The notes: generated by a model from the letters alone, not told the origin. DNA of 64,000 nucleotides from an uncultured Dehalococcoides sp. (GCA_964628985.1 CAZVNJ010000001.1:21477-85476), one strand, 5' to 3'; positions 2,105 through 55,376 are shown, numbered from the stretch's first letter. Numbers and translations: made by a program.

Positions 2105-3655
2105 ATGTCCTGGCAGCCCGAGGTGGATGAACTGGAGCGCCGCCGCGCGCTGGCCGCGCAGATGGGTGGCCCGGAGGGCATCGCGCGGCAGCACGCCAAC
2201 GGAAAGTTGACGGTTCGGGAGCGCATCGATGCGCTGGTAGACCCTGGATCGTTCCGCCAGTTCATGGGCCTGATGGGCAGCGCGACGTATGAGGACGGCG
2301 TCCTCGCGAGCCTGACGCCACGCGCCGCAGTGGAGGGCTTCTGCACGCTGGACGGCCGCAAGGTCGTGGTGACCGGAGGGGACTTCACCGTCCGCGGCGG
2401 GTCGGGTGGCGGCTCCGGCGGGATGGGGATGGAGCCCTCGGCGAGCCGGCGCGCCCTCGAGTGGCGCGTTCCATACGTCCGGTTGCTGGACGCTGCAGGT
2501 GGAAGCGTGCGCACCTTCGACGAGATGGGGCGGACGTACCTGCCGGACGGCAACGTGGGCGCCGCCGTCGACGTGCAGCTGCTCCGCTCGTCCCCGGTGG
2601 TCTCCGCTGTCCTTGGTTCCGTGGCTGGCCTTCCCGCGGTCAATGCCTGCATGTCGCACTTCAACCTCATGGTGAAGGAGACGAGCCAGCTATTCCCGGG
2701 TGGCCCGCCCGTCGTGAAAGCAGCCCTCGGCTACGACGTGGACAAGGAGACGCTCGGTGGGTGGGAGATGCACACGCGGATCAGCGGGGTCATCGACAAC
2801 CTGGCGAACTCCGAGGCCGAGGCTTTCGCGATGATCCGGCGCTTCCTCTCCTACCTGCCGTCGAACGTCTGGGAGATGGCGCCGCGGGTGGAGCCACAGG
2901 ACCCGGTCGACCGGCGCGAGGAGTCGTTGCTCTCGATCATCCCCCGCGACCGACGCCGAGGGTATGACGGGCACCGCGTGGTGAACGCGGTCGTGGACCG
3001 CGACTCGTTCTTCGAGATCGCGCCTGCCTACGGGCGGGCCCGGATCACAGGCCTCGCGCGTCTGAACGGGTACCCCGTGGGCATCATGGCCAACAACCTC
3101 GCGTTTGGTGGAGCCACGGACGTCACCGCGGGGGACAAGGTCATCCGCCTGATCCAGTTGTGCGACACCTTCCACCTCCCGCTCATCTCGCTGGCGGACG
3201 AGCCTGGGTTCATGGTGGGCATCGAGTCGGAGAAGCGAGGGATTGAGCGGGCCGGGGCGCGTCTCGTCATCGCCACGTGCGAGAGCCGGATGCCGTGGGC
3301 GACTGTGGTGACCGGCCAGTTGTACGGGGTCGCCGGCCAGTGCCAGCACCGCCCCACCGGAATGTTCCGTCGCTATGCATGGCCCTCCGCGCGCTGGGGC
3401 TCGATGCACATCGAGGGTGGCGCCTCCGCGGCGTACCGGCGCGAGATTGAGTCGGCACCTGACCCAGAGGCGAAACGGGCCGAGATCGAGGCGCGTCTCA
3501 ACGCGATCGCCTCGCCGTTCCGGACCGCCGAGGCCACTGGCCAGGACATTATCGATCCCCGTGATACTCGGCCGCTGCTTTGCGAGTTTGTCGAGGAGGC
3601 ACAGCCGATCCTGCGGTCACAACTGGGACCGTCTCCGACGCCGTACCGACCGTAG
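2105..3655 (+). CDS. acyl-CoA carboxylase carboxyltransferase subunit (propionyl-CoA carboxylase beta-like)
   Basis: ATG at 2105 is preceded by AAGGAGG (2094-2100). Motifs: GKLTVRERIDAL, GGDFTVRGGS, LADEPGFMVG and the PCCB/AccD-type two-domain layout. The 1505-2104 part of the ORF is Arg/Pro-rich junk. Confidence 0.9.
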   Translation: MSWQPEVDELERRRALAAQMGGPEGIARQHANGKLTVRERIDALVDPGSFRQFMGLMGSATYEDGVLASLTPRAAVEGFCTLDGRKVVVTGGDFTVRGGSGGGSGGMGMEPSASRRALEWRVPYVRLLDAAGGSVRTFDEMGRTYLPDGNVGAAVDVQLLRSSPVVSAVLGSVAGLPAVNACMSHFNLMVKETSQLFPGGPPVVKAALGYDVDKETLGGWEMHTRISGVIDNLANSEAEAFAMIRRFLSYLPSNVWEMAPRVEPQDPVDRREESLLSIIPRDRRRGYDGHRVVNAVVDRDSFFEIAPAYGRARITGLARLNGYPVGIMANNLAFGGATDVTAGDKVIRLIQLCDTFHLPLISLADEPGFMVGIESEKRGIERAGARLVIATCESRMPWATVVTGQLYGVAGQCQHRPTGMFRRYAWPSARWGSMHIEGGASAAYRREIESAPDPEAKRAEIEARLNAIASPFRTAEATGQDIIDPRDTRPLLCEFVEEAQPILRSQLGPSPTPYRP

Positions 3656-42569: not shown

Positions 42570-44012
42570 ATGACGAACGTCCTGTTGCTCGACGATGAGG
42601 CCTTCCGCGCGATCGTGGACCGCGCACCGGACGGAATTGTCCTGGTCGACAACACGGGACGGATCGTCTTCATCAACCGGCAGATCACTGAGCTCTTCGG
42701 CTACGAGCCGAGTGACCTGCGTGGCCAGCGGGTTGAACTACTGATGCCCGAGGATCGCCGAGCGGTGCACGTGATCAACCGCGAGATCTACCAGGAGCAC
42801 CCGGAGACGCGGCCCATGGGGACCGGCCTGGACTTGGTGGGCCGCCGCAGAGACGGCTCGACGTTCCCAGTGGAGATCAGCCTCAGCGTCCTGGCCGGGC
42901 GCGCCGGCGACCTCAGCGTCGCGGTGGTGCGAGATGTCTCTCGCCAGAAGCGGGCGGAGGAAGCGCTCCGGCGCAGTGAGGAACGGCACCGTCTGCTCGC
43001 GGAGCAGGCCCAGGACATCATCTTCCGCTATCGCCTCCGGCCCAGTGCAGCGTTCGAGTACATCAGCGCCGCGATGACACGCCTCCTGGGCTACCGCCCT
43101 GAGGAGTTCTATGTCGACGACGATCTGATCTTCCAGATCACTCATCCGGAGGATCGGACCACGTTGGAGGAGGCGCTCGGCCTAGAGGGCCCGCGAAGCT
43201 TTGCCCTGCGCTTTGTCCACCGGGATGGGCAGGTCCGCTGGTTCGAGCAGAGCATCTCACTCGCGACCGACTCGAGCGGCGTCGTCGTCGCCCTCGAGGG
43301 GATCGCGCGCGACGTGACGGACCGGCGCGGCGCTGACGCTGAGCGTCAGCGCCTGATGGCGGAGGTCGAGCGGCAACTCGACCGAGAGCGCATCGCCGGC
43401 GATCTCCATGACGAGACGATCCAGTCGATCTATGCCGTGGGCCTCGGACTCCACGCAGCACTCGCTGACGCCTCGGTCACGAAAGAGGCCGCGATTGAAC
43501 GCACGATCGAGGGCTTGAACTCAGTGATCATCGAGTTGCGGACGTACATGCAGGGGCTTAGCGGCCAGACAGCGGGTGCCACGCCGGAGTCGCTCGCGCT
43601 GCGCGTTGAGGGGTTGATCCGCGACTCGGGCACCACCCGATGGGACGCAAATGTGGCGCCTGACCTCGGGCTGGAGCCTGCTATCGAGCGCCACGTCTAC
43701 TTGCTGGTGAAGGAACTCATTTCAAACGTTCAGCGACACGCCTCGGCGGCGAACGCCTCGGTCTCCGTGAGGCGGGAGCCAGGTTCTCCGGTGGATCGCC
43801 TGCTAATCCAGGTGACGGACGACGGAGTAGGGTTTGAGCGGGCTTCGATTCCAGTGCACAGCTTCGGCTACCGCTCCATCGAGCAGCGAGTCATGACGCT
43901 CGGGGGTGCGCTCGCGATCGACTCGGCTCCAGGACGTGGGACGAAGGTCCGGTTGTCGTTCCCCGTCTCCACGCCGCCACCGGACGGTTCGGTGAGGGCG
44001 GGCCAGGGCTGA
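42570..44012 (+). CDS. PAS-PAS sensor histidine kinase (HisKA_3/NarX-type)
   Basis: Two PAS-like modules (GIVLVDNTGRIVFINRQ..; IIFRYRLRP..), H-box AGDLHDETIQ, N-box ELISNVQRHA and DDGVGF. Confidence 0.9.
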   Translation: MTNVLLLDDEAFRAIVDRAPDGIVLVDNTGRIVFINRQITELFGYEPSDLRGQRVELLMPEDRRAVHVINREIYQEHPETRPMGTGLDLVGRRRDGSTFPVEISLSVLAGRAGDLSVAVVRDVSRQKRAEEALRRSEERHRLLAEQAQDIIFRYRLRPSAAFEYISAAMTRLLGYRPEEFYVDDDLIFQITHPEDRTTLEEALGLEGPRSFALRFVHRDGQVRWFEQSISLATDSSGVVVALEGIARDVTDRRGADAERQRLMAEVERQLDRERIAGDLHDETIQSIYAVGLGLHAALADASVTKEAAIERTIEGLNSVIIELRTYMQGLSGQTAGATPESLALRVEGLIRDSGTTRWDANVAPDLGLEPAIERHVYLLVKELISNVQRHASAANASVSVRREPGSPVDRLLIQVTDDGVGFERASIPVHSFGYRSIEQRVMTLGGALAIDSAPGRGTKVRLSFPVSTPPPDGSVRAGQG

Positions 44013-44015
44013 CGC

Positions 44016-45314
44016 GTGCCAGGCATCGGCTCCGAGGAGGTCGCGCTTGAGCGCACCCTGGGCCTGTGGCAACTCACCGTGTCAGGCGTCGGCATCGTCA
44101 TTGGTGCCGGAATCTACGTCCTCATTGGGAGCGCCACAGCGGAGGCCGGGAGCCTTGTATGGGCCTCCTTCGTCCTGGCTGCCGTCCTCGGAGGCCTCAC
44201 CGGGCTGAGTTACGTCGAACTCGCCGGGCTGTTCCCGTCCGCGGGGGCGGAGTACGAGTTTGCACGTCGCGCCTTCAATGAGTTCTGGGGCTTCCTCGCG
44301 GGCTGGCTCATGATCGCGGGCAATGTCGTCGCAGCCGGCGCGGTCGCGCTGGGGTTTGCGGAGTACCTGCGACATTTCATCGAAGTGGACACTCGAGTGG
44401 CCGCGCTGGCGCTTCTGCTGGTGCTCACCGGCATCATTGCGAGCGGCGTGCGGCGCTCCATCTGGCTGACGACCGCGCTGGTCGTCCTGCAGGTCGGTGG
44501 GCTCCTGCTCGTGATCGCCGTCGGTGCACCGCATGTCGGCGATCGGTCGCTCACCGAGGGCAGCATGACCGGGGTGCTCTCGGCGGCGGCACTTGTGTTC
44601 TTTGCGTTCATCGGCTTCGACGAGGTCGTAACGCTCTCCGATGAGACCAGGGACCCGAGCCGCGTCGTACCTCGGGCGCTTCTGCTCGCCCTCGGGCTTT
44701 CAACACTTCTCTACGTGGCCGTGGGAGTCGTCTCGGTCAGCACGATTGATTGGCGCGTACTGGCGGCGTCGGACCGTCCTCTGGCCGTCGTGCTGGGGCA
44801 CGAAGGAAACACCCGCTCGGCGGACGTGGTCGCGTGGATCGCACTGGCGTCGACCACGAACACGACGCTCCTGGTGCTGACCGCGGCCTCGCGGCTGATG
44901 TTTGACATGGCGCGCAAGGGCGCGTTCCCGCCCGTGCTCGGACTGGTGAGCCGCCGGGCACGTGCGCCCTACGCCGCCGCGCTGGTGGCGTTCGTCGTGG
45001 CCTCGGGCTTCGCGCTTCTCGGCAGCATCGACCTCGTCGCCGCGGTGACCGACTTCACGGTGTACGCCGTCTTCGTCGCGGTGAACCTCGCCGTGCTGCG
45101 ACTTCGGCACACGATGCCCGACGTGCTCCGACCGATGCGTGCCGGGCCGTCGCTGGGGCGGTGGCCGGTCGCCTCGGTGCTTGGGCTGCTGGCCACGCTG
45201 GCGATGCTCGCGTTCCTGGAGGTCGCCGCGTGGGGGATCGGACTGGCGCTGATCGTGCTCGCGCTCATGGCGTGGATGGTGCGTGGGTACCGCACCGGCA
45301 CCGCGGGCGCCTAG
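44016..45314 (+). CDS. APC-superfamily amino acid/polyamine permease
   Basis: About 12 TM segments. N-terminal pattern LGLWQLTVSGVGIVIGAGIYVLIG. GTG start lies 4 nt after the kinase stop. Confidence 0.85.
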   Translation: MPGIGSEEVALERTLGLWQLTVSGVGIVIGAGIYVLIGSATAEAGSLVWASFVLAAVLGGLTGLSYVELAGLFPSAGAEYEFARRAFNEFWGFLAGWLMIAGNVVAAGAVALGFAEYLRHFIEVDTRVAALALLLVLTGIIASGVRRSIWLTTALVVLQVGGLLLVIAVGAPHVGDRSLTEGSMTGVLSAAALVFFAFIGFDEVVTLSDETRDPSRVVPRALLLALGLSTLLYVAVGVVSVSTIDWRVLAASDRPLAVVLGHEGNTRSADVVAWIALASTTNTTLLVLTAASRLMFDMARKGAFPPVLGLVSRRARAPYAAALVAFVVASGFALLGSIDLVAAVTDFTVYAVFVAVNLAVLRLRHTMPDVLRPMRAGPSLGRWPVASVLGLLATLAMLAFLEVAAWGIGLALIVLALMAWMVRGYRTGTAGA

Positions 45315-46243
45315 AAGGGGAGTTCCACGCCGAGCCCGGCGGCGCGCGCCTTGCTCAGGACGTACGCGCTGGCTGCCGCATCCTCGATGCCGATCCCCTG
45401 GCTCTCGAACAGTGTGATGGCGTCCGCGGAGGGCCGTCCGGCCACCTCGCCGCTGACCACCTGGTGCAGTTCACGCGCCTGTCGCCAGCGGAAGGCGCCC
45501 CGCTCGACGGCCCAGATCAGTTCACCGCATTCGATCTGGGCCTGTTCGAGGTTGTCCACGACGACGAGCGCCGCGCGCTGGATGGTCGTGTCGTCGACTT
45601 CGCGCTTCATCCATGAGTTGGAGCCCGCGGCTACCACGCACTGGCCGGGTTCGAGGAGGGAGCCGTCGAAGACAGGCTCACGCGCGCTGGTGATCGCGAC
45701 CACGATGTCAGAACCGCGGACGCAGTCGTCCGGCGCGGCCACCGGGACGACATCGACGCCGAGTGAGCGGGACATCTCCGCGGCGAACGCCTCGCGCTTC
45801 TCGGCACTGCGGCTGTGCACCTTCACGGTCTTGACCGGCCTGACGGCACAGATCGCCTCGATCTGGGTGACGGCCTGGCGGCCCGTGCCGATCATCCCCA
45901 CGACGGAAGCGTCTGGCCGTGCCATGTGCTTCACCGCGACACCGCTGGCCGCGCCTGTCCGGATCCACGCGAGCGTGCCCGGCTCGATCACCGCATCGAG
46001 TTTGCCTGTCTCGGTGTTGTATAGGAGGGTGGCCGTGGAGTGACGGACGGCGTGCGCGTGCGACTCCAGGACGGTGCCGCCCATGATCGTCGCGCCGGCC
46101 TTCTCGAAGCGAAACCGCTGGCGTGGGAGGTTCTGGACCGTGCCCCGCGCTTCCTGGCGGAATAACTTCTCCAGCACGTTGACGCATTCGTCCATCGGCA
46201 AGAGCGATCGGACATCGTGGTTGGAGAGATAGAGGGCGGCCAT
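45311..46243 (-). CDS. ornithine cyclodeaminase / mu-crystallin family protein
   Basis: The VGMIGTGRQA Rossmann motif and family-typical termini. Confidence 0.85.
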   Translation of the reverse strand: MAALYLSNHDVRSLLPMDECVNVLEKLFRQEARGTVQNLPRQRFRFEKAGATIMGGTVLESHAHAVRHSTATLLYNTETGKLDAVIEPGTLAWIRTGAASGVAVKHMARPDASVVGMIGTGRQAVTQIEAICAVRPVKTVKVHSRSAEKREAFAAEMSRSLGVDVVPVAAPDDCVRGSDIVVAITSAREPVFDGSLLEPGQCVVAAGSNSWMKREVDDTTIQRAALVVVDNLEQAQIECGELIWAVERGAFRWRQARELHQVVSGEVAGRPSADAITLFESQGIGIEDAAASAYVLSKARAAGLGVELPF

Positions 46244-46318
46244 GAGAGTCCTGCCGTTCGGCGCCGGGTTCGCTGCATGATAGCGACGAGGCCCCGGGCG
46301 CCTGACCTCAGGGACTGC

Positions 46319-47464
46319 CTAGCGCGCGGCGAGGATCAGGCGGTCAGCCGGGTCGTGGCTCTCGGCGGCGATCCGTCGCAGTTCGGGAAGCACGGACTCG
46401 AATGCGTCCAGGACGGCTGGGTCAAACTGGCTGCCGCGCCCACCTCTCAAGAGATTCAATACCTCTGACTCCGGGAAAGCAGGCTTGTAGGCGCGCGCCT
46501 CAGCCAGGGCGTCGTAGACGTCCGCCACGGCGGTGATCCGCGCTTCGATCGGGATTTCGTCGCCCCGCAGGCCGAGCGGGTAGCCGGTGCCATCCCAGCG
46601 TTCATGGTGGGCGAGGGCGATGCGTTGCGCCATCTGCAGCATCGGGCTGTCCACCGAATCCTCAAGCGTGGCCTCTGACTGCCATCGGTCGAACCCGCCG
46701 GAGCAGTGCGCCTGCGAGGAGAGGATCTGCGCGCCGATCTCGCAGTGCCGCTTCATGACAGCGAACTCCTCCACGGTCAACTTGCCGGGCTTCGTGAGGA
46801 TCGCGTCCGGGATGCCGATCTTGCCCACGTCATGCAGCGGAGCGGCGAGCAGCAGCGTCCGTGACGTCTGCTCGTCCAGCCCCACAGCCGAGGCGATGAG
46901 AGCTGCATAGCGTCCGACCCGGACCACGTGGTCCCCTGTATCGCCGTCCCGGTGATGCGAGGCACGGGCCAGCGCGAGGACGAGGTCATGGTGCGACCGC
47001 TCGAGGGCCTGGGTCCGCTGCGCCACCATCTCCTCCAACAATTGGTTGTGCTGCAGCAGTCGCTCCTGGTGTGCCCGGAGGCGAAGCGCGTTTCGGATGC
47101 TGGCCATGAGCTCGTCGCGTTCTACGGGCTTGCGGAGCAGGTCCGTCGCGCCGAGCTCGAGGGCGCGCGACCGGAGGTCGCGGTCCCCAGCGCCCGTGAC
47201 CATGATCACCGGGACCTGATGCGCGCTGGCCGCTGCCGCTTCCAGTACTCGGAACCCGCCACCGCCAGGCATCTGGACGTCCGAGACCACCAGGTGGATT
47301 TCGCCGGACTTGATCTGCGCGACCGCCTCGTTCACCTCGGTCGTGAAGCGGAGGTCCCAGGTGGTGGTGCGCGCGAGCGTGCGCCGCATCGCAGTGAGGA
47401 TCAGCGGGTCGTCGTCGACGAACAGGATCGTGGCCGTGAGATCAGCATCCAGTGGAAACAGCAT
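46319..47464 (-). CDS. response-regulator receiver fused to an HD-GYP domain (RpfG-type c-di-GMP phosphodiesterase)
   Basis: Receiver ILFVDDDPLIL..VVSDVQMPGGGG. HD-GYP motifs HDVGKIGIPD and HHERWDGTGYP are intact. Confidence 0.9.
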   Translation of the reverse strand: MLFPLDADLTATILFVDDDPLILTAMRRTLARTTTWDLRFTTEVNEAVAQIKSGEIHLVVSDVQMPGGGGFRVLEAAAASAHQVPVIMVTGAGDRDLRSRALELGATDLLRKPVERDELMASIRNALRLRAHQERLLQHNQLLEEMVAQRTQALERSHHDLVLALARASHHRDGDTGDHVVRVGRYAALIASAVGLDEQTSRTLLLAAPLHDVGKIGIPDAILTKPGKLTVEEFAVMKRHCEIGAQILSSQAHCSGGFDRWQSEATLEDSVDSPMLQMAQRIALAHHERWDGTGYPLGLRGDEIPIEARITAVADVYDALAEARAYKPAFPESEVLNLLRGGRGSQFDPAVLDAFESVLPELRRIAAESHDPADRLILAAR

Positions 47465-47586
47465 CGTCGTACCTCTCGCCGCGGCTGGGGGGGCGGCGTT
47501 CAACCCGATGGACTCTCTGCCCTGCACCGATCCTGCTTAACCTCCGCACACTCACTTGTGTCCTGTGCGTGCGTACTGTCCCGCGC

Positions 47587-47844
47587 CTAGCGGTGATCGC
47601 GGTCGAGCCTGGCCGCGTAGCGCAGCCGGCGTCCCTCGGATGTAGCGGTGAGGAGCTGCGCCTTGCACAGATCGCGGACGATGCGCCGCACGCCCGCCGT
47701 GGCGAGCCCGAGCCCGGACGCGATCTCATGGAGGGTGGTCCCCGGGTGTTCGGCGACGAAGAGGAGCGCCAGGCCGTGCCTGGTCACAAGGCTCCAGCGG
47801 CGGGCGGCCGGGCGGTCCGTCGAGCCTGTTGGATGTTGAGGCAT
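47587..47844 (-). CDS. small winged-helix (MarR/ArsR-like) DNA-binding protein
   Basis: 85 aa. LALLFVAEHPGTTLHEIASGLGLATAGVRRIVRDLCKAQLL resembles a wHTH recognition unit. The rest of the 229-aa ORF (47845-48276) is rejected. Confidence 0.55.
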   Translation of the reverse strand: MPQHPTGSTDRPAARRWSLVTRHGLALLFVAEHPGTTLHEIASGLGLATAGVRRIVRDLCKAQLLTATSEGRRLRYAARLDRDHR

Positions 47845-48117
47845 CGAATCCTTCTTCCTCTCCCGCCTGGGCACAGGATGGCTGACTCGGTGTCCCCGCT
47901 GCCCCCTGCGGAAGGACGAGATCGAGTAGTGCATTCGGACTGTTTGCACCCCCCTGCTCAGCGTCCTGATCCGGTGACACGGGTGACGAAGGTCCCCGGT
48001 CTCGGGGGCGTTTGCATGGGCCAGATCAGGGCGTACGCCCCTCGGCTGCAGCGTGGCGTGTCCGTAGCGTGATGCGTGTGAAGGCTTGGCCCGTGGGCCA
48101 CCCGGAAGGGGTAAGAA

Positions 48118-48495
48118 GTGACCAGGAAGCGCATCTGGACCGTGATGGGACTGAGCCTGCTGGTGGCTGCGCTGGCCGGTGCCGGGTTCAGCCTGACTGC
48201 CTCGAACACAGTGCCCGAGAGCAAGGGCGGCGAAGGCGCCGGCGTGATCTCCGGCTACAACGTCGCGTCCGTGCACTACACCTTGAACGCGTCGGACCCG
48301 AGCAAAGTGGACAGTGTCTCGTTCTCACTGGACTCCGCCCCGGTCGCCGGGTCCACCATCAAGGCCCGGATCGATTCCTCTGGGACCACCTGGTACACGT
48401 GCACGAACGTCGGCGTGAACGTGACCTGCAACACGACGTCGCCCCAGGCGACGGCGACGTCCGCCAACGAGCTGCGCGTAGTCATCGCTCAGTGA
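48118..48495 (+). CDS. small exported protein P1 with a SipW-substrate-like N-terminus (candidate fibre/matrix subunit)
   Basis: GTG start with GGAAGGGG upstream. MTRKR plus the hydrophobic core IWTVMGLSLLVAALAGAGF, then LTASNTVPESK. The mature part is Ser/Thr/Val/Asn-rich, suggesting a beta-rich fold. The stop lies 4 nt before the peptidase gene. Confidence 0.7.
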   Translation: MTRKRIWTVMGLSLLVAALAGAGFSLTASNTVPESKGGEGAGVISGYNVASVHYTLNASDPSKVDSVSFSLDSAPVAGSTIKARIDSSGTTWYTCTNVGVNVTCNTTSPQATATSANELRVVIAQ

Positions 48496-48499
48496 AGGG

Positions 48500-50224
48500 A
48501 TGGACCGTGACAGGAGCACGTTGATGCGCATCGCGCCCATCGTCCTCACCACGGCGCTCTTCGGACTCGCGTTCGCGTCATGGATGTTTCTTGGCCCCTC
48601 GAATGTCCGAGGGCCGGTCGCCTACCTGGTCACCAGCGGGAACAGCATGGAGCCGTACTTGCACCGCGGCGACCTGGCCGTGGTGCGTGCGGGTAAGAAC
48701 GGCTCCGTAGGCGACGTACTGGCGTATCGCAACAGCCAGACGGGCCAACGAGTCCTCCATCGCGTCATTGCGAAGGAGCGGGACCGCTTCGTCCTCCAGG
48801 GGGACAACAACTCCTGGGTGGACACCTTCCAGCCGACGAGTGAGGACCTCGTCGGGCGGCTCTGGTTCCGGATTCCGAAGGCCGGGATGGTCGTCGAATG
48901 GATGCGCGCGCCGCTGCACGCGGCCCTGCTCATGGGGGGAGGAGTGGCGATGAGCCTGTCGCTGGGGCTGCCTCCGACGCGCCGAAAATGGCGCGGCCTC
49001 CGCCTTCGCAATCGTGTGAGGGGCCACCGAGGTCTGCTGCTCGCCGCTTCCGGCACCGCCGGCCAGAACGCGCTCGGGATCGGCCTCGGCGTGGTCGTGC
49101 TGGCGCTCGCCGCCAGCGTCGTGCTCTGGACGCTGCCCACCACACACGTCTCAACGGCGCACCTCGAGTACGAACACCGCGGCGTGTTCGGCTACTACGC
49201 GGAGACCGTGCTTCCAGTTGCGTCCGCGGCTCCTCTCCCGGACCCGCGGACTCGCACGGCGGTCCCCGGAGAACCCCCCGCCCTGGACCTGATCATGCTT
49301 GCGGCCGACCCGACCGTGGCAGCGCTGCTCGATGTCCCAGTGAGCACCGGCGAGCCCATCCTGGTCAACGTCAACCCGAAGGTGAACTTCCTGTTCGACT
49401 ACACCCTCGGCGTGTCCGAGCCGGCGCAGGTGAGCGGGTTCGTGCGCCTGGATGCCGTGGTGTCCGACATCACCGGGTGGAAGCGCGTGTTCCCGTTCGC
49501 TCCTGAGCAGACGTTCACGGGGACACGTGTCCAAATCGCGGTCCGGGATGCCGATCTGACGCCGATCATGGCGGCATTCCCGATTTACCAGGCGATCACC
49601 GGTCACGCGCCTCGCTACTACACCGCCTCCATCGTCGCGGTCGTGACGCTGGAGGCGACGGTCGACGGCCAGGCGATCCAGGAGACCTTCCGCCCGGCGG
49701 TCACGTTCCGCGTCGCGCCGCCCAACGAAATCTACGTGGAGACCGACGAGACGTGGCACCTCGAGGCCCACGGCATCACTCCCACGGACCCGGCCGGCGC
49801 GGACGCCTCGAACCCGTTCGAGACTGTCCGGACGAACTCCGTTGCCTACCCGGAGCAGGTGCCGAACACGGTCCCGATCTTCGGATTCGACATCACGGTC
49901 ACGTCGCTCCGCGCGCTCGTCGCGATGGTCGGCTCGCTGGGCCTTGTCGCCGCGGGCGGCCTCTTCCTGCTCCAGCGGGCCGGTGACCGGCTCGGCGAAT
50001 CGTTCGCAATCGAGGCGCGGTACGGCGCCCGGATGGTCACGTTGGATGCCGGGCACCGAGGCGATGAGGACAAGCCGATGACCTATGTGGCGCGGCTCCA
50101 GGATCTGGTGCGGATCGCGGATCACACCGGCGCCCCCATCCTGCGCTCCGTAGGCGCTGGCGGCGAGACCTACTGCGTGCGTGACGGCGAGCATCGCTAC
50201 GCGTATGGCCCTGTGGAGGCTTGA
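48500..50224 (+). CDS. SipW/archaeal-ER-type signal peptidase I (S26B) fused to a ~430-aa multi-TM C-terminal module of unknown function
   Basis: TM1, then SGNSMEP (Ser), VLHRVI (His) and QGDNNSWVD boxes. Three further hydrophobic segments (res ~137-157, ~190-212, ~470-491) bracket a ~255-aa presumably external domain and an ~80-aa tail. Confidence 0.85.
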   Translation: MDRDRSTLMRIAPIVLTTALFGLAFASWMFLGPSNVRGPVAYLVTSGNSMEPYLHRGDLAVVRAGKNGSVGDVLAYRNSQTGQRVLHRVIAKERDRFVLQGDNNSWVDTFQPTSEDLVGRLWFRIPKAGMVVEWMRAPLHAALLMGGGVAMSLSLGLPPTRRKWRGLRLRNRVRGHRGLLLAASGTAGQNALGIGLGVVVLALAASVVLWTLPTTHVSTAHLEYEHRGVFGYYAETVLPVASAAPLPDPRTRTAVPGEPPALDLIMLAADPTVAALLDVPVSTGEPILVNVNPKVNFLFDYTLGVSEPAQVSGFVRLDAVVSDITGWKRVFPFAPEQTFTGTRVQIAVRDADLTPIMAAFPIYQAITGHAPRYYTASIVAVVTLEATVDGQAIQETFRPAVTFRVAPPNEIYVETDETWHLEAHGITPTDPAGADASNPFETVRTNSVAYPEQVPNTVPIFGFDITVTSLRALVAMVGSLGLVAAGGLFLLQRAGDRLGESFAIEARYGARMVTLDAGHRGDEDKPMTYVARLQDLVRIADHTGAPILRSVGAGGETYCVRDGEHRYAYGPVEA

Positions 50225-50640
50225 TGCGCGCGAGGGTGGCCCGGGCGCCTCAGCGGCGTGTCCGGCGTCTGCTGGTCGCGATCGCAGTGGTCTCGGTGGT
50301 GGTGGGGGCGATGTCGGTGACGACCGCGTCGAACTCGATCCCCCCGACGCGACTTGGCCAGCAGTCCCAGGCCACGGGGGTGACCGAATTGAGGCCCGCC
50401 GCGTGCGCTTCGCTGGCCCTTACCTCTCTGGTGGTCGGGACCGGCAACTTCAGCGGCACGAGCGCGAATGACCTCATCCTCGCGTCGCGAGGTGCGCGTC
50501 GCATCCGAGGCGGAGCCGGCAATGACTGCATCCTCGGGGGTGCGGACGCGACGGAACTGGACGGCCAGAGCGGCACCGATGTCTGTATCGGGCCCACCGC
50601 TGCGACGTTCAGAGGATGCGAGACCACGATCATGCAGTAG
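50224..50640 (+). CDS. small exported/anchored protein P3 with an RTX-like beta-roll repeat
   Basis: ATG overlaps the peptidase stop (TGATG). Arg-rich n-region, hydrophobic LLVAIAVVSVVVGAM, then TTASNSIPPTR. Three 18-aa repeats include GGAGNDCILGG. Confidence 0.65.
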   Translation: MRARVARAPQRRVRRLLVAIAVVSVVVGAMSVTTASNSIPPTRLGQQSQATGVTELRPAACASLALTSLVVGTGNFSGTSANDLILASRGARRIRGGAGNDCILGGADATELDGQSGTDVCIGPTAATFRGCETTIMQ

Positions 50641-51300
50641 TCAGGAGTCGCGGAAGCCCTCGGCCCGTGCGCGGGCGACGGCCTCGAGCCTTGTCCGAGC
50701 GCCGAGTTTGTCGAGGATCGACTGCACGTGGCCTCGGACGGTGTTGTAACTGATGACGAGGCTCTCCGCGATGGCGATGTTGTCCAGGCCCTTCATCATG
50801 AGGGCGAGGACCTCCTGCTCCCGGGCGGTGAGAGTCGCGAGTGCCTGGCTCTTCTCAGACTGAGACTGCTGCCGGCCCAACCGGACCAGGCGCTGCAACG
50901 TCCCCGGGGGGACGAGCATTTCACCTGCGGCGGCGCGCCGGACCTGCTGCGCGATCTGGTCGCTGCCCTCGGTCTTCAGGATGTATCCACTGGCCCCGGC
51001 CTCGAGCGCCGCGAGCATGGCGAGCTCGCTCATGTCTCCGCTGATCATCACGACGGCCGTCTCGGGCAGCGCGGCGCGGATTTCGGCGGTGGCGGCCGCC
51101 CCGGAAATGTCCGCGAGATGAAAGTCCATCAGGACCACGTCCGGACGCAGCGCGAGCGTGGCCTCGATGCCCTCGCGGGCGCCCGCGGCGATGCCAGCAA
51201 CCTCGATGTCAGGGTGGCGGCGCAGCGCGAGTGCGATGCCTTCGGCGACCATCCGATGGTCGTCGACGATGAGCACCCTGATGACCGACACCGAGGTCAC
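50641..51300 (-). CDS. LuxR/NarL-family response regulator
   Basis: Receiver VLIVDDHRMV..VVLMDFHLADISG. HTH NIAIAESLVISYNTVRGHVQSILDKLG. GTG start. Confidence 0.9.
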   Translation of the reverse strand: MTSVSVIRVLIVDDHRMVAEGIALALRRHPDIEVAGIAAGAREGIEATLALRPDVVLMDFHLADISGAAATAEIRAALPETAVVMISGDMSELAMLAALEAGASGYILKTEGSDQIAQQVRRAAAGEMLVPPGTLQRLVRLGRQQSQSEKSQALATLTAREQEVLALMMKGLDNIAIAESLVISYNTVRGHVQSILDKLGARTRLEAVARARAEGFRDS

Positions 51301-51306
51301 GCGAGC

Positions 51307-51328
51307 CGCCCGTCAGGCGCCCGTCAGA
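51307..51328. promoter_or_regulatory. tandem CGCCCGTCAG x2 (11-bp period) adjacent to the response-regulator start
   Basis: Copies at 51307-51316 and 51318-51327. The CGTCAG core is the reverse complement of the CTGACG core of the downstream 19-bp repeats. Confidence 0.4.
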
Positions 51329-51382
51329 GATTTCCGAGTCTGCCGGGAGATGAAGCGTATACCCTCGCCACGCCGAGGCACC

Positions 51383-52663
51383 ATGATGGGCCTGACGAAT
51401 CGCAGAGGGCCTGACGAATCGCAGAGGGCACGACGAAGCAGTGAGGTCCGGGTGGAGTTCACATCGGACATCCTGTCCGCCTTACTGGATGCCGTACCAG
51501 ATGCCCTGGTCGGGATCGCGGAGGACGGCGAGATCGTCCTCGTGAACGCCTCGGCGGAGCGGCTGTTCGGCTACACGCGCGACGAGATGCTCGGGGCGTC
51601 CATCGATGTCCTCGTCCCCGAGGGCATCAGTCCCCTCTACTCGGCTCAACCGCTGGACGTTGACGGGGGTACTCGCGCAGGGCGGTTGGGTATCGGAGAG
51701 GTGTTCTCCGGACGGCGCAAGGACGGCAGCGAGTTTCAAGCGGAGATCGAGACCTCGCCCGTCGAAACCCCTGCCGGCCGGGTCACCCTCGCGGCAGTGC
51801 GCGATATCTCCGGGCGCGCCGGCACACAGCACGGACCGGGTGGGCCCGTAGGACAGGCCGAGTCCCAGCGGCATGACAGCCTCGGGGAGGTGGTCGGCGG
51901 CCTCGCCCACGACCTCAACAACATGCTGAGCGTGATCCTCAACTACGCGGGCGTCGTGGTCCATCTTCTCGGCCAGCCTGACCTCACTCCAGAAGACATC
52001 GCCGGGGCCCGCCGCGACCTAGGGCAGGTGACGCTCGCGGCTGAGCAGGCCGCGGTGCTCACACACCAACTGCTCGCGTTCGCGCGCCACGCCCCACGGC
52101 CGCCCGTGGCCCTCTCCCTCAATGAGACGGTCCAACGCCTCGAGCCGTTGCTTCGGCGGGCGTTGGGCGGGGACTCGCACCTCGAGGTCTCGCTCGCCTC
52201 GGAGCTGCCGCTCATCGAGGCAGATCCCGGACGGGTCGACCGCATCCTGGTGGAGCTCGTGCTGTATGTCCGCGACGGGTTGGCGCGCGGCCGCACGCTT
52301 CTGATCGAGACCGATGTGATCGAGGCGGACCCAGCCGGGGTCACGGGGCAGGCTCTGCTCCGTGACCGCACGCACGTCCGGCTTCGCGTGGGGGACAGGG
52401 GGGGCGGCGCGCCCGCTACAGGGTTGGAGGCGCCCAACATGCTGGCAGATGAGCGGCAGGCCACGGGGCGCGGCTCCGGCCTCGCCACGACCTACGACAT
52501 CGTGACGGCTGCCGGGGGCGTGGTGCGCCCGGACCCTCTCGAGGGTGCGGGGACGACGGTCACGATCCTGTTCCCGGCCGCACAAGAGGGTCCGCTGCCC
52601 ATGGAGGATCCGCACCCACCCCGTGGCACCGGCGACGCTGGGGGCGGCGGTACGACGGCCTAA
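51383..52663 (+). CDS. PAS sensor histidine kinase with a degenerate ATP-binding (N/F-box) region
   Basis: PAS (ALVGIAEDGEIVLVNASAERLFGY), H-box GGLAHDLNNML. The catalytic domain reads ELVLYVRDG where LxxNARDA is expected. The start is ambiguous: ATG 51383 or GTG 51452 (GAGG upstream), which would place the tandem repeat in the leader. Confidence 0.75.
   Translation: MMGLTNRRGPDESQRARRSSEVRVEFTSDILSALLDAVPDALVGIAEDGEIVLVNASAERLFGYTRDEMLGASIDVLVPEGISPLYSAQPLDVDGGTRAGRLGIGEVFSGRRKDGSEFQAEIETSPVETPAGRVTLAAVRDISGRAGTQHGPGGPVGQAESQRHDSLGEVVGGLAHDLNNMLSVILNYAGVVVHLLGQPDLTPEDIAGARRDLGQVTLAAEQAAVLTHQLLAFARHAPRPPVALSLNETVQRLEPLLRRALGGDSHLEVSLASELPLIEADPGRVDRILVELVLYVRDGLARGRTLLIETDVIEADPAGVTGQALLRDRTHVRLRVGDRGGGAPATGLEAPNMLADERQATGRGSGLATTYDIVTAAGGVVRPDPLEGAGTTVTILFPAAQEGPLPMEDPHPPRGTGDAGGGGTTA
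51388..51444. repeat. 19-bp tandem repeat GGGCCTGACGAATCGCAGA x2 plus a degenerate third copy
   Basis: 51388-51406 and 51407-51425 are identical. 51426-51444 (GGGCACGACGAAGCAGTGA) is diverged. The period is not a multiple of 3. Confidence 0.8.
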
Positions 52664-53015
52664 CTCACGAGGCCCCCACACAGCATCGGGGAGGCACTCG
52701 CCTCAAGTCACCGAGGCACACAGCGACACAGCAGGCACGCTGGATCTCTCGCGCAGATTCAGCGCGCTCACGTCGCGTCAGTCAGGCCGGGGAATGCAGC
52801 ATCCTCGTGTATGAGGCCATACCGAAGTGACGATTTCGGAATATTTGCATCTGACCTTTGCCGGAGCGTCATATCCTCGTGAGGTAGAGGTGGGACGTCG
52901 TTTGGTGCCCTCGTCACACGACGCCGAGGGCAGGGCTTACTTAGCACGGCAGCCGTCGGGCTGACGGTGACCGGGCCCGTCCCATCCTCCGCTTCCTCAA
53001 CCGAGCACGGAGGAC

Positions 53016-55376
53016 GTGGTGGGGCGTTTGAGCTGGCCCGGGCACTGGACCCTCGCCACGCGCGTTGTCATCGCTTCGGCTGCGTTGCTTGCCGCCCTCC
53101 TGGCCATTGTCGTCGCCACCGAGGACCGGGCGAACGACGAGCGCCGGCGGGCGGAGGTCGACCACTCTTACGAGACCGCTCAGGCAGTGGCGGGCATCGT
53201 AGACGGCTTCGCGAGCGACCTCGAGACCACCATGCTGGCGGCGGCGCTGCTGCTGGGCGACCGCCCGGAGGCGCTGACACAGGCAACGGCTGGCGATCAC
53301 CTCAAGCGACTGACCGAGCAATACGGGCTGCTGCGCGCCATATTCGTGGCGGACCTCGACGGGCGCGTGATCGCCAGCGACTCCGGCGCGGGGCACGGTA
53401 CCGACCTGTCTGCACGCCCATACATGCAGTCTCTGCGCGCGGGGGCGAAGGAGGTCTGGGGCCCGGGTGTCGCGGGTATTGACTCCGGAGAAGTCACGGC
53501 CACCTACGGACGCGTGATCACGGACGGGGCAGGGACGGTCCGCGGCTACCTGGTGGCGGCCTTCTATCCGCCCCGCCTTGCCGAGCGGATCGAGCCACGG
53601 ATCTCCGCGGACGCGGACGTGGTACTGATCGACGGTCTCGGGTTCGTCCTCTACAGCACTGCCCATCCCAACCTGACGCCTGAAGCCCGTGACCTCTCCG
53701 GGCTGCCCGCCGTGCAGGCCGCGCTTTACGGTGCACCCACGCGGCTGGACGGAGTGACCGGCCTGCTGGGGTCGGACGAGCGTTTCGGCGCGATCGTCCC
53801 GATCCGAAACCCCGGCTGGGCCGTGGCGTTCAGCCGGCCGGTCGCCCCACTCGAGTCGATGCTCCGGCAACGCTTGCTCGTGCAGGCGGGCCAGGTGACA
53901 GCGAGCGTGCTCGTTGTGGGGATACTCATGACGGTCTCGACCCGACGCATTGCTCGCCCGCTCGCTCGCCTCGCCCGCGTCGCTGAGAACGTGGCAAGGG
54001 GTGAGCGAGAGTCACCGCCAGTCATCGAGGGCGGCCCGGAGGTCCGGACGCTCTCCGCGGCGATGCAGGCGATGAGTGCGTCCGTGGCGCAGCGCGAAGA
54101 CGCCATCCGTCTCGAGTCCGAGCGCCGGCGAAAGCTGGCCGAGGCGTCGCGAGCCTTCACCGAGGCCGTCGTCGACCTCGACGCGGAGACGGAGACCATC
54201 GCTCAGTCCGTCGCGGAGGCCCTTGCGGACGGATGCGCGGTGATGCTGCTGTCGGAGGACGGGGCACGGCTGCACGTGGCCGCCGTATACCACCCGGACA
54301 CGCGACGACAGCAGCTCGCGCGGGCGGCCCTCCAGGCTCGGCCGCTGGTCGTGGACGGATCGCGCCTGGAACCACTCGTCCGTTCGGCGGAGACGCTCTT
54401 CCTTGCCGACGCCACTCCGCTGCTCCAGTCGGCCTACCCGGAGCGGGCTGGTCTCGTCGAGCAGCTCGGGTTGAACAGCCTGGCCTGCGTCCCGCTGCGG
54501 GCACACGGCCGGGTCATCGGCCTCCTTGGCGTGTGGCGAGACGCTGGTGAGGCGCTGCTGCCCGACGATGTAGTCCTCTTGCAGGAGATTGGCGATCGGG
54601 CGGCGCTGGCGATCGAGAACGCCCGGCTCTTCATGGCCGTGGGAGCCCATGCAGTCGAGGTGGAGCGGGCCATGCTCGCGCAGGACGACCTGCTTTCGCT
54701 CATCTCTCACGACCTCCGCAACCCGATGACTACCATCAAGGCCGCCGCTCAGCTCGTTTACCGTCGTGTCGATGCTGGGAACGCCAGGCGCGAAGACATC
54801 CTGCCCGTGATCTCGATGATCGACGCTGCCGTCGCGAAGGTCACTCGGGAGATCGATGCGATCCTGGACCTTTCGCTCGCGCGGGCCGGCCGCATGCTGG
54901 GCCTGCAGGTGGGCCAGGTGGACCTCGTGCCGCTCGTGGAGCATGTCGCGACGATGCACGGCGAAGGGGTACCGAACGAGATTGTGGTGGAATCCGAGGA
55001 ACCCCACCTACACGGACAGTGGGACTCGTCCCGACTGGAGCGCGTGTTCGACAACCTGATCGGCAACGCGGTGAAGTACAGCCCCGGTGGGGATCCCGTC
55101 ACGGTCCGGGTCACTCGGGAGATGGTCGGCGACGCCCCGTGGGCCACGGTCATGGTCCAGGACCGGGGGATCGGGATCCCCGCCAGCGAGATCGACCGCG
55201 TGTTCGACCGCTTCTATCGAGGCAGCCAGGTCGTCGGGCGGATGCCGGGCACGGGGCTGGGGCTCAGCGGGGTGAAGTTGATTGTCGAAGCCCACGGTGG
55301 CCAGGTCCACGTCGAAAGCGCCGAGGGCGTCGGGAGCACGTTCACCGTCCGCCTGCCATGCCTTCCTCCTGAGTGA
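53016..55376 (+). CDS. large sensor histidine kinase (extracytoplasmic sensor region - HAMP - GAF-like region - HisKA - HATPase_c)
   Basis: GGAGGA upstream of GTG. TM, a ~270-aa external region, TM, the HAMP-like [13 protein letters not shown], and a GAF-like segment. H-box SHDLRNP, N-box [12 protein letters not shown]-boxes [14 protein letters not shown]. Confidence 0.9.

Follow-up and report, generated by a model that had tools for sequence, protein, structure and literature searches.

A three-gene locus joining a SEC11/SipW-type signal peptidase-DUF5305 fusion to two exported proteins with a common leader: a candidate fiber module of Chloroflexota and Actinomycetota

What a signal peptidase gene set between two genes for small exported proteins is there to do, and what its products might build, is the question raised by a three-gene locus in a stretch of DNA from an uncultured Dehalococcoides sp. 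(GCA_964628985.1, CAZVNJ010000001.1:21477-85476). This stretch, referred to hereafter as the window, spans 64 kb, and all coordinates of the module are counted from its first letter. The three genes, here named P1, P2 and P3, lie on the plus strand where a preliminary description of the window had placed them, and their open reading frames (ORFs) were confirmed in the sequence (Table 1). That description had read the locus as a dedicated-peptidase secretion or fiber module, analogous to but distinct from that of Bacillus, and its reading is sustained here by the type of the peptidase, the linkage of the genes, the leader shared by the two exported proteins and the lack of any match to TasA. 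The three-gene unit is real, and that P2 is an active enzyme dedicated to the processing of P1 and P3 is a well-supported prediction. That the three genes would form one export-and-assembly unit making a cell-surface or biofilm fiber, with P1 as its polymer and P3 as its starter, is the interpretation we favor, and one that we judge, taken whole, to be probable by a slight measure.

The assignment of P2 starts from its catalytic domain. The curated model for archaeal-type signal peptidase I (TIGR02228) matches amino acids (aa) 36-145 with 54.8 bits against a cutoff of 51.85, whereas the bacterial LepB-type model is failed (25 against a cutoff of 47). The boxes SGNSMEP (aa 46-52), VLHRVI (aa 85-90) and GDNN (aa 101-104) contain three of the four residues, Ser49, His87, Asp102 and Asp108, that are invariant in 32 P2 homologs. 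Human SEC11C and SEC11A are the best sequence matches of P2 in the PDB, with the SMEP, HRV and GDNN boxes aligned, and human SEC11A is also the top Foldseek match (7p2p_A; E 1.4e-5, probability 1.00, TM score on the target 0.56) of the AlphaFold2 (AF2) model of P2, which has a mean predicted local distance difference test (pLDDT) score of 82. The earlier assignment of P2 to the Ser-His peptidases of the endoplasmic reticulum, archaea and SipW, rather than to the LepB type, is thus borne out by curated model, sequence and fold alike. P2 nonetheless fails the equivalog of Bacillus SipW (NF046067) by a wide distance, at 28.9 bits against a cutoff of 190, and by these scores it is SipW-like in type, yet no SipW ortholog.

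P2 also passes the Pfam model of DUF5305 (PF17231), a family that had been named beforehand as one to compare. The match covers aa 472-569 at 31.9 bits against a cutoff of 29 and profile positions 118-217, which makes the protein a peptidase-DUF5305 fusion, and relatives of P2 match profile positions 1-217, covering the region of its beta-rich domain. Read from the N-terminus, the model comprises a first transmembrane helix (aa 4-31), the peptidase (aa 40-125), a second helix (aa 138-156), a disordered basic loop, a third helix (aa 186-211), a beta-rich domain predicted to lie outside (about aa 213-466), a fourth helix from aa 467 and a tail at aa 512-572. This predicted topology agrees with the extracellular beta-sandwich, two membrane helices and cytoplasmic alpha/beta fold published for DUF5305. 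A Foldseek comparison of the ectodomain returned no accessory subunit of the eukaryotic signal peptidase complex (SPC), and generic immunoglobulin (Ig)-like sandwiches only. On the strength of profiles and model, P2 is a SEC11/SipW-type signal peptidase with an intact predicted active site, fused to a TafG-like DUF5305.

The distribution of the locus among genomes provides evidence that its three genes belong together. An earlier contig scan with exact peptides of the window's P2 gave no match; a scan with a P2 alignment, taking one genome per species, gave 519 relatives, from which 80 loci were kept, mainly, not solely, from Chloroflexota and Actinomycetota, and profiles of P1 and P3 were run on their ORFs. 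P1 lies directly upstream of P2 on the same strand in 74 of the 75 evaluable loci and downstream in the remaining one, and P3 lies downstream of P2 in 68 of 78, with two further in-frame fusions; the P2 and P3 genes overlap by 4 nucleotides (nt) in 43 of the 68. Searches started from the cargo proteins converge on the same arrangement. Six loci were reached from P1 homologs (L001-L006, with L002 duplicating L001) and three from P3 homologs (L007-L009), and all eight independent loci carry P1, in one or two copies, together with P2 and P3. Seven of them show the order P1-P2-P3, and in L005 P3 stands between P1 and P2. The carriers among the 80 loci include Anaerolineales, Chloroflexia, Dehalococcoidia and Thermomicrobiales in the Chloroflexota, and Gaiellaceae, Rubrobacteraceae, Conexibacteraceae and Baekduia in the Actinomycetota. 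Tandem duplication of P1 is seen in seven of the 80 (L011, L014, L036, L041, L044, L082 and L084) and also in L001, L003 and L004. The three-gene linkage is therefore conserved and widespread in both phyla, and the anticipated co-occurrence of motif-bearing P1 and P3 homologs with this type of peptidase holds across them. Two loci of Gaiellaceae (L038:3989-5980 and L060:3935-5908) have P3, complete with its own leader and motif, in the frame of P2 with no intervening stop, and this could represent either a self-processing fusion or internal initiation.

The two exported proteins are joined to each other by their leaders. At the N-terminus of each, a basic n-region leads into a hydrophobic core, which is followed by the heptad TASNTVP in P1 and TASNSIP in P3, all of which were confirmed as first described, and among the six-frame ORFs of at least 50 aa in the window the pattern [AT]A[AST]N[TS][VI][PA] occurs in P1 and P3 only. 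An hhalign comparison of the two families aligns them with 97.2% probability (E 4e-11), and the alignment is confined to 42 columns of leader plus motif; the bodies of P1 and P3 are, as judged from these profiles, unrelated, with only the leader and motif in common. Column counts over the 80 loci give a consensus junction F-[AT]-A-[AST]-N-T-V-P-x-[ST]-K for P1 and [AT]-A-[ATGS]-N-[TS]-[VI]-P-x-[ST]-R for P3, and in nearly all P3 homologs the heptad follows the hydrophobic core. Position -3 is A or T and position -1 is A, S, T or G across the motif-bearing P1 matches of these loci, and by the -3/-1 rule cleavage of P1 is predicted at T-A-S / N30, just before the Asn. In both leaders conservation is highest in the heptad, and it stands as the candidate recognition or cleavage determinant it had been taken for. 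In one locus the third gene (L076:5521-6060) encodes a non-RTX protein of 179 aa, rich in Ser, Thr and Pro, with the same leader junction (FTAAINIPSTNAG), and since the leader thus recurs on a third unrelated body it behaves as a portable module. The models TIGR04088, TIGR04089 and TIGR04090 gave no match at E<=10 in P1, P3 or 24 P1 homologs, a negative to be read with the reservation that the HMMER speed filters can hide very weak matches to short models.

Past the predicted cleavage site, P1 belongs to a large family that has gone without a name. All 133 homologs collected are annotated as hypothetical, and the family profile retrieves 1664 clusters (50% identity) with E<=1e-3, of which 840 reach E<=1e-10 and none carries an annotation, with the best 150 mostly small (80 to 221 aa). 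Neither Pfam nor NCBIfam has a model that P1 passes at its cutoff. In the AF2 monomer model, built from 111 homologs, a compact core follows an N-terminal segment of very low confidence (pLDDT below 50 at aa 25-43). This poorly modeled segment is nevertheless conserved: among 24 aligned homologs N30, T31, V32, K36, G38 and G40 do not vary and P33 hardly does, and with 111 sequences in the alignment G38 and G40 still show no variation and conservation of N30-P33 is 90% or more. Cys95 and Cys104, likewise invariant in the homolog alignments, are placed in a hairpin of the modeled core. Sub-cutoff Pfam matches were seen in P1 homologs to SpaA_2, a prealbumin-like pilin domain (nine of 24, best E 2e-4), and to DUF6318, DUF5108 and Big_7, and we take these weak matches solely as a hint of an Ig-like fold. 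An isopeptide cross-link through K36 was considered and set aside, because the matching position of P3 is mostly Arg or Ser.

P3 as a whole protein matches no curated family. It contains RTX repeats, passing the model of Pfam HemolysinCabind (PF00353) at 24.1 bits against a cutoff of 23, and its 84 homologs are mostly flagged by the same model and keep four invariant cysteines. The beta-roll proposed for it at the outset can thus be named: P3 is, by its repeats, an RTX beta-roll of the calcium-binding kind, with calcium binding itself a prediction. P3 does not fit secretion by a type I system, as for RTX toxins and adhesins, since it has an N-terminal signal peptide; its scores to toxin and serralysin models lie far below cutoff, and the ORFs and Pfam domains of the neighbors reveal no transporter gene beside the operon. 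The n-region of P3 (50224-50331) is arginine-rich, with seven Arg including QRRVRRLL, and has a faint resemblance to twin-arginine translocation (Tat) signals. Export of P3 by Tat was set aside, its homologs being mostly without paired arginines.

Taken together, these elements suggest the following scheme. P1 and P3 would be made as precursors with Sec-type signal peptides ending in F-[AT]-A-[AST] / N-T-V-P-x-[ST]-[KR], and P2, as a four-helix membrane protein exposing its peptidase and DUF5305 beta-sandwich outside and a small tail inside, would cut both directly before the invariant Asn. Mature P1, of about 96 aa, would then be an Ig-like sandwich braced by a disulfide and bearing an N-terminal arm of some 17 residues that is conserved but flexible, and presumably the abundant building block, because the P1 gene stands at the head of the operon, is served by a ribosome-binding site of its own and in some loci occurs in duplicate. 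Mature P3 would bear the same arm on its unrelated calcium-binding beta-roll. Because translation of the P3 gene is coupled to the end of P2, the protein would probably be made in small amounts, and since its body could not receive an arm it would start or cap a polymer. In the manner of TapA, P3 would donate its arm to the first P1 and take the terminal place in a polymer of P1 whose subunits would be joined by insertion of each arm as a strand into the neighboring subunit, and the resulting surface or biofilm fiber would have its output tied to signaling by cyclic diguanosine monophosphate (c-di-GMP). That mature P1 would polymerize through its arm is suggested by analogy with known donor-strand fibers and by the arm being conserved and yet disordered in the model, and we also infer the exclusivity of P2 for P1 and P3, the position of cleavage and the role of P3. 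An ampler version of the same scheme, in which the locus would represent an unrecognized class of fiber in the Chloroflexota and Actinomycetota, with TasA-unrelated P1 subunits joined by the N-T-V-P arm, an RTX starter or cap, and a tail of P2 that would sense c-di-GMP, in some lineages directly by its fused EAL or HD-GYP domain, and make cleavage the regulated inside-out switch, is a possibility that we regard as doubtful.

Several observations weigh against the fiber. The modeled core of P1 already has seven strands, and the sandwich may be complete, leaving the existence of a groove for a donor strand in doubt; the arm, for its part, contains a Pro and a Gly-rich stretch, and only about seven of its residues look strand-like. 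A Foldseek search of the P1 model against the PDB gave no significant neighbor, the best match having E 0.3 and the best-scoring structures being generic Ig V domains, and TasA, AbpA, TafE and thread are not among the 50 best matches listed. Pfam models of TasA/camelysin (PF12389), DUF1102 and related families find no match at E<=1 in P1 or 24 members of its family. No anchor, whether sortase/LPXTG or S-layer homology domain, is encoded in the operon, and P3 is missing from about 10% of the loci. The comparison loci come nearly all from metagenome-assembled genomes, with ORFs called by a custom script. Part of this had been foreseen: P1 had been described as beta-rich and unlike TasA or camelysin, which agrees with its seven-strand model and with the absence of TasA-like matches in sequence or fold. 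The comparison of P1 and P3 with TIGR04088, TIGR04089, camelysin and DUF1102 ended without a match. The jelly-roll core of the TasA superfamily has no counterpart in the roughly 77-aa, seven-strand sandwich of P1. A profile search of P1 against PDB sequences found only a chance fibronectin match (E 7.5), and the idea of P1 as a reduced TasA, AbpX or TafE was dropped because neither this search nor Foldseek gave anything relevant.

The observations just listed leave room for another account, by which P2 would be a private peptidase with no polymerization behind it, the junction would be its recognition and cleavage determinant and nothing else, and P1 and P3 would remain soluble or wall-associated monomers, for instance a small Ig-like adhesin or coat protein with a calcium-binding partner. 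Linkage and shared leader are explained equally well by such dedicated processing, which also suits the complete-looking sandwich of P1 with its lack of a known fiber subunit match, and a leader that recurs on unrelated bodies, as L076 shows, agrees with a sorting signal that is portable. Conservation beyond the cleavage site (N-T-V-P-x-S-K-x-G-x-G), however, exceeds the usual needs of a signal peptidase, and the dedicated SEC11/SipW-type peptidases characterized in the DUF5305 and SipW literature, be they with or without DUF5305, all serve fiber subunits, with the exception of one case concerning ribosomally made peptides that are modified post-translationally (RiPPs). The major/minor arrangement of the genes and the duplication of P1 also fit a structural polymer, and processing without assembly seems to us a serious but rather unlikely alternative.

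The remaining accounts concern P2 itself. Streptococcus pyogenes SipA/LepA is a signal-peptidase homolog needed for pilus polymerization, and its structure (4n31) is among the Foldseek matches of P2 with probability 1.00, so one may ask whether P2 is mainly a non-catalytic assembly chaperone. The invariance of the Ser, the His and both Asp in the 32 homologs, together with the passing of TIGR02228, makes a loss of catalysis unlikely, the operon has no sortase or LPXTG pilin, and we consider the idea very improbable. Slightly more improbable still is that P2 would be a general housekeeping signal peptidase with incidental neighbors: TIGR02228 does model general archaeal signal peptidases as well, but an incidental association is hard to reconcile with a linkage that, across two phyla, puts P1 upstream of P2 in 74 of 75 loci and P3 downstream of it in 68 of 78, or with translational coupling and a leader confined to the neighbors. 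The least probable of all is that P2 would cleave leaders in a RiPP-like pathway. RiPP clusters can be served by peptidases of the SipW type, yet neither the operon nor its immediate surroundings contain a gene for a RiPP recognition element (RRE), a kinase or a cyclase, the catalytic domain of P2 is predicted to lie outside the membrane, and P1 and P3 are proteins of 125 and 138 aa with classical signal peptides and folded domains. The fiber-making unit, with P2 as its peptidase, thus remains our preferred interpretation.

The suggested link of this unit to c-di-GMP derives from relatives of P2. Nine of these, all from Chloroflexota, end in a cytoplasmic EAL domain (seven) or HD_5 domain of the HD-GYP type (two). 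None of the seven EAL copies keeps the DDFGTGYSS motif intact, and ExxE reads ExxR in four of them; EALxR, KxD and QG are mostly kept, and these tails may accordingly be sensors of c-di-GMP rather than hydrolases. P2 of the window has neither an EAL nor an HD-GYP tail. The response regulator upstream of the module carries the HD_5 type of domain that is fused to P2 in L008 and L014, and together with the fusions this suggests a tie between c-di-GMP and matrix output, or perhaps the very step of cleavage.

Other genes around the module may be mentioned in this connection. In the window the operon sits within a dense signaling block (42570-47527 and 50641-55376) that includes a putative PAS-containing ORF (42570-44012), the HD-GYP response regulator, a MarR-type regulator, a LuxR-type response regulator, a PAS protein with a kinase ATPase domain and a Cache-HAMP-GAF histidine kinase. 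The MarR-type gene is not conserved beside the module in other loci. In L007 two TadE-like genes (384-731 and 2787-3182) lie near the module, and large CLIPPER/DUF7933 proteins are encoded near it in L007 (13596-16459, with additional SdrD_B and sortase domains) and L003 (14764-16375); other surface-structure genes thus cluster nearby in these loci.

The fine structure of the operon allows for some choice of start codons. The GTG start of P1 is preferred over the deposited call, which begins at Met10, gives 116 aa and loses the basic n-region (48118-48144), because a Shine-Dalgarno-like GGAAGGGG precedes the GTG by 6 nt and the homologs have basic n-regions. For P2, an alternative ATG at 48524 is preceded at 7 nt by AGGAG (48512-48516) and coincides with the deposited call of 566 aa (Met9); its ribosome-binding site is better placed, and P2 may start there. 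The distance between P1 and P2 would in that case be 28 nt, and the tight 4-nt gap originally described (48495/48500), accurate for the ORFs, may not hold for the genes as translated. The stop/start overlap of P2 and P3 stands as described: the TGA of P2 (50222-50224) and the ATG of P3 (50224-50226) share one base in TGATG, with a GGAGG 4 nt before the ATG. Simple scans of 47400-51000 returned no promoter or terminator, and at 68% guanine plus cytosine such scans are uninformative.

Table 1. Features of the three-gene module and its surroundings (window coordinates unless a comparison locus is named)
Feature	Coordinates	Strand	Basis and remarks
Shine-Dalgarno-like GGAAGGGG	48104..48111	+	Read from sequence; 6 nt 5' of P1 GTG
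P1	48118..48495	+	ORF, GTG start, 125 aa; exported protein, proposed major subunit
P1 signal peptide	48118..48204	+	aa 1-29; n-region MTRKR, hydrophobic core; AF2 helix 3-22
Heptad TASNTVP in P1	48196..48216	+	aa 27-33; spans predicted cleavage site and new N-terminus
P1 conserved N-terminal arm	48205..48261	+	aa 30-48, NTVPxSKxGxGxG..GY; disordered in monomer model
P1 core	48262..48489	+	aa 49-124, 7-strand beta-sandwich; AF2 pLDDT about 90
P2	48500..50224	+	ORF, 574 aa; membrane signal peptidase I fused to DUF5305 module
P2 catalytic domain	48605..48934	+	aa 36-145; TIGR02228, homolog alignment, Foldseek SEC11A
P2 catalytic residues	Ser49 48644-48646, His87 48758-48760, Asp102 48803-48805, Asp108 48821-48823	+	Invariant in homologs
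P2 extracytoplasmic beta-rich domain	49136..49897	+	aa 213-466, between transmembrane helices 3 and 4; AF2 secondary structure
P2 cytoplasmic alpha/beta tail, C-terminal DUF5305	50033..50215	+	aa 512-572; PF17231, AF2 model
P2-P3 coupling element	50215..50226	+	GGAGG 50215-50219, TGATG 50222-50226; read from sequence
P3	50224..50640	+	ORF, 138 aa; exported RTX beta-roll protein, proposed minor subunit/fiber starter
Heptad TASNSIP in P3	50323..50343	+	aa 34-40; predicted cleavage T-A-S / N37
P3 RTX nonapeptide repeats	50455..50547	+	aa 78-108, Pfam HemolysinCabind
MarR-type winged-helix regulator	47587..47979	-	PF12802, 27.1 bits vs cutoff 27; divergent from P1; start uncertain
Response regulator with HD-GYP-type (HD_5) domain	46319..47527	-	Pfam; about 600 bp upstream of module
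EAL-tailed P2 relatives	L027:3932-6367, L033:3740-6463, L068:3959-6337, L072:3959-6403, L085:3989-6349, L088:1410-3887, L007:6728-7984		
HD_5-tailed P2 relatives	L008:5793-8000, L014:4019-6148		

Dedicated SEC11/SipW-type peptidases with DUF5305 have been tied to donor-strand biofilm fibers only recently, and mainly in archaea and Bacillota. If the scheme outlined above is true, the principle would also apply in the Chloroflexota and Actinomycetota, there with two cargo families not described before, and the locus would offer a very small, three-gene system in which to approach the choice of substrates by such peptidases, the role of DUF5305 and the action of c-di-GMP on signal-peptide cleavage. 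Many of the carriers are filamentous or biofilm-forming bacteria of environmental or wastewater origin, whose surface structures are little known.

The closest parallel in overall design is the tapA-sipW-tasA operon of B. subtilis. Each comprises three genes, that of a Ser-His signal peptidase standing between those of two exported proteins, and in both the peptidase gene and a neighbor share an overlapping stop and start, the stop of tapA overlapping the start of sipW. The proposed division of labor is also similar, if the abundances suggested here are right: TapA, far scarcer than TasA, gives its unstructured N-terminus to TasA and fits only at the start of the filament, and the N-terminal donor segment of TasA is flexible in the monomer, so that each system would combine an abundant subunit with a scarce partner bearing an unstructured N-terminus. 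P1 furthermore shows one trait of the TasA superfamily, being linked to a dedicated signal peptidase I (SPase I)-DUF5305 in 74 of 75 loci. The components themselves differ. P2 carries a DUF5305 extension of 430 aa and fails the SipW equivalog, mature P1 (96 aa) has no match in sequence or fold to the jelly roll of TasA, P3 is an RTX beta-roll where TapA has an Ig domain, and the leader junction A-[AS]/N-T-V-P is not of the TasA type. SipW homologs, moreover, can act as RiPP leader peptidases, cleaving the leaders of linear polyphosphorylated peptides.

A second group of relatives is found among the Tafi and AbpX loci. In the texts searched, DUF5305 comes up where archaeal or TasA-superfamily donor-strand fibers are treated, and genes for a dedicated SPase I and DUF5305 occur in TasA, AbpX and Tafi donor-strand fiber loci. 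In Tafi pili the DUF5305 protein TafG has been proposed as a helper of the dedicated peptidase TafD, whose loss blocks pilin processing. Like these loci, the module has a dedicated peptidase of the TIGR02228 type and DUF5305 next to genes for secreted subunits of small size and for minor or tip proteins, with signaling genes nearby. It departs from them in having peptidase and DUF5305 in one polypeptide, a fusion mentioned in passing for Anaerolinea, Tepidiforma and Actinoplanes (the AbpX preprint describes DUF5305 as "sometimes fused to SPase I", with Anaerolinea thermophila as the example), in subunits that are not DUF1102, TafE or AbpX-like, and in a locus reduced to three genes. Tafi pili are archaeal, whereas the hosts of this module are Chloroflexota and Actinomycetota.

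Two more distant systems complete the comparison. SEC11A/C of the eukaryotic SPC provides the closest solved structure to the catalytic domain of P2, with the same arrangement of Ser, His and Asp, but P2 is a single chain in bacteria and its beta-domain matches no accessory subunit. In the LapD-LapG-LapA system, an RTX adhesin is the target of a periplasmic protease under the control of a c-di-GMP receptor. The EAL-tailed subset of P2 relatives is reminiscent of this system, with a degenerate EAL domain predicted to be joined across the membrane to an extracytoplasmic protease and an RTX protein as neighbor; protease class, topology and substrates differ, and P2 of the window has no EAL domain. 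Neither papers on DUF5305 and TasA-type fibers nor a wider literature search yielded a description of P1-like or P3-like proteins. What is known already is that dedicated SEC11/SipW-type peptidases with DUF5305 serve co-encoded surface proteins, and the fusion of the two has been noted in the 2025-2026 literature, which assigns it to donor-strand fiber loci; what is new, as far as we have found, are the two cargo families, the leader that they share, the three-gene architecture and the variants with EAL or HD-GYP tails.

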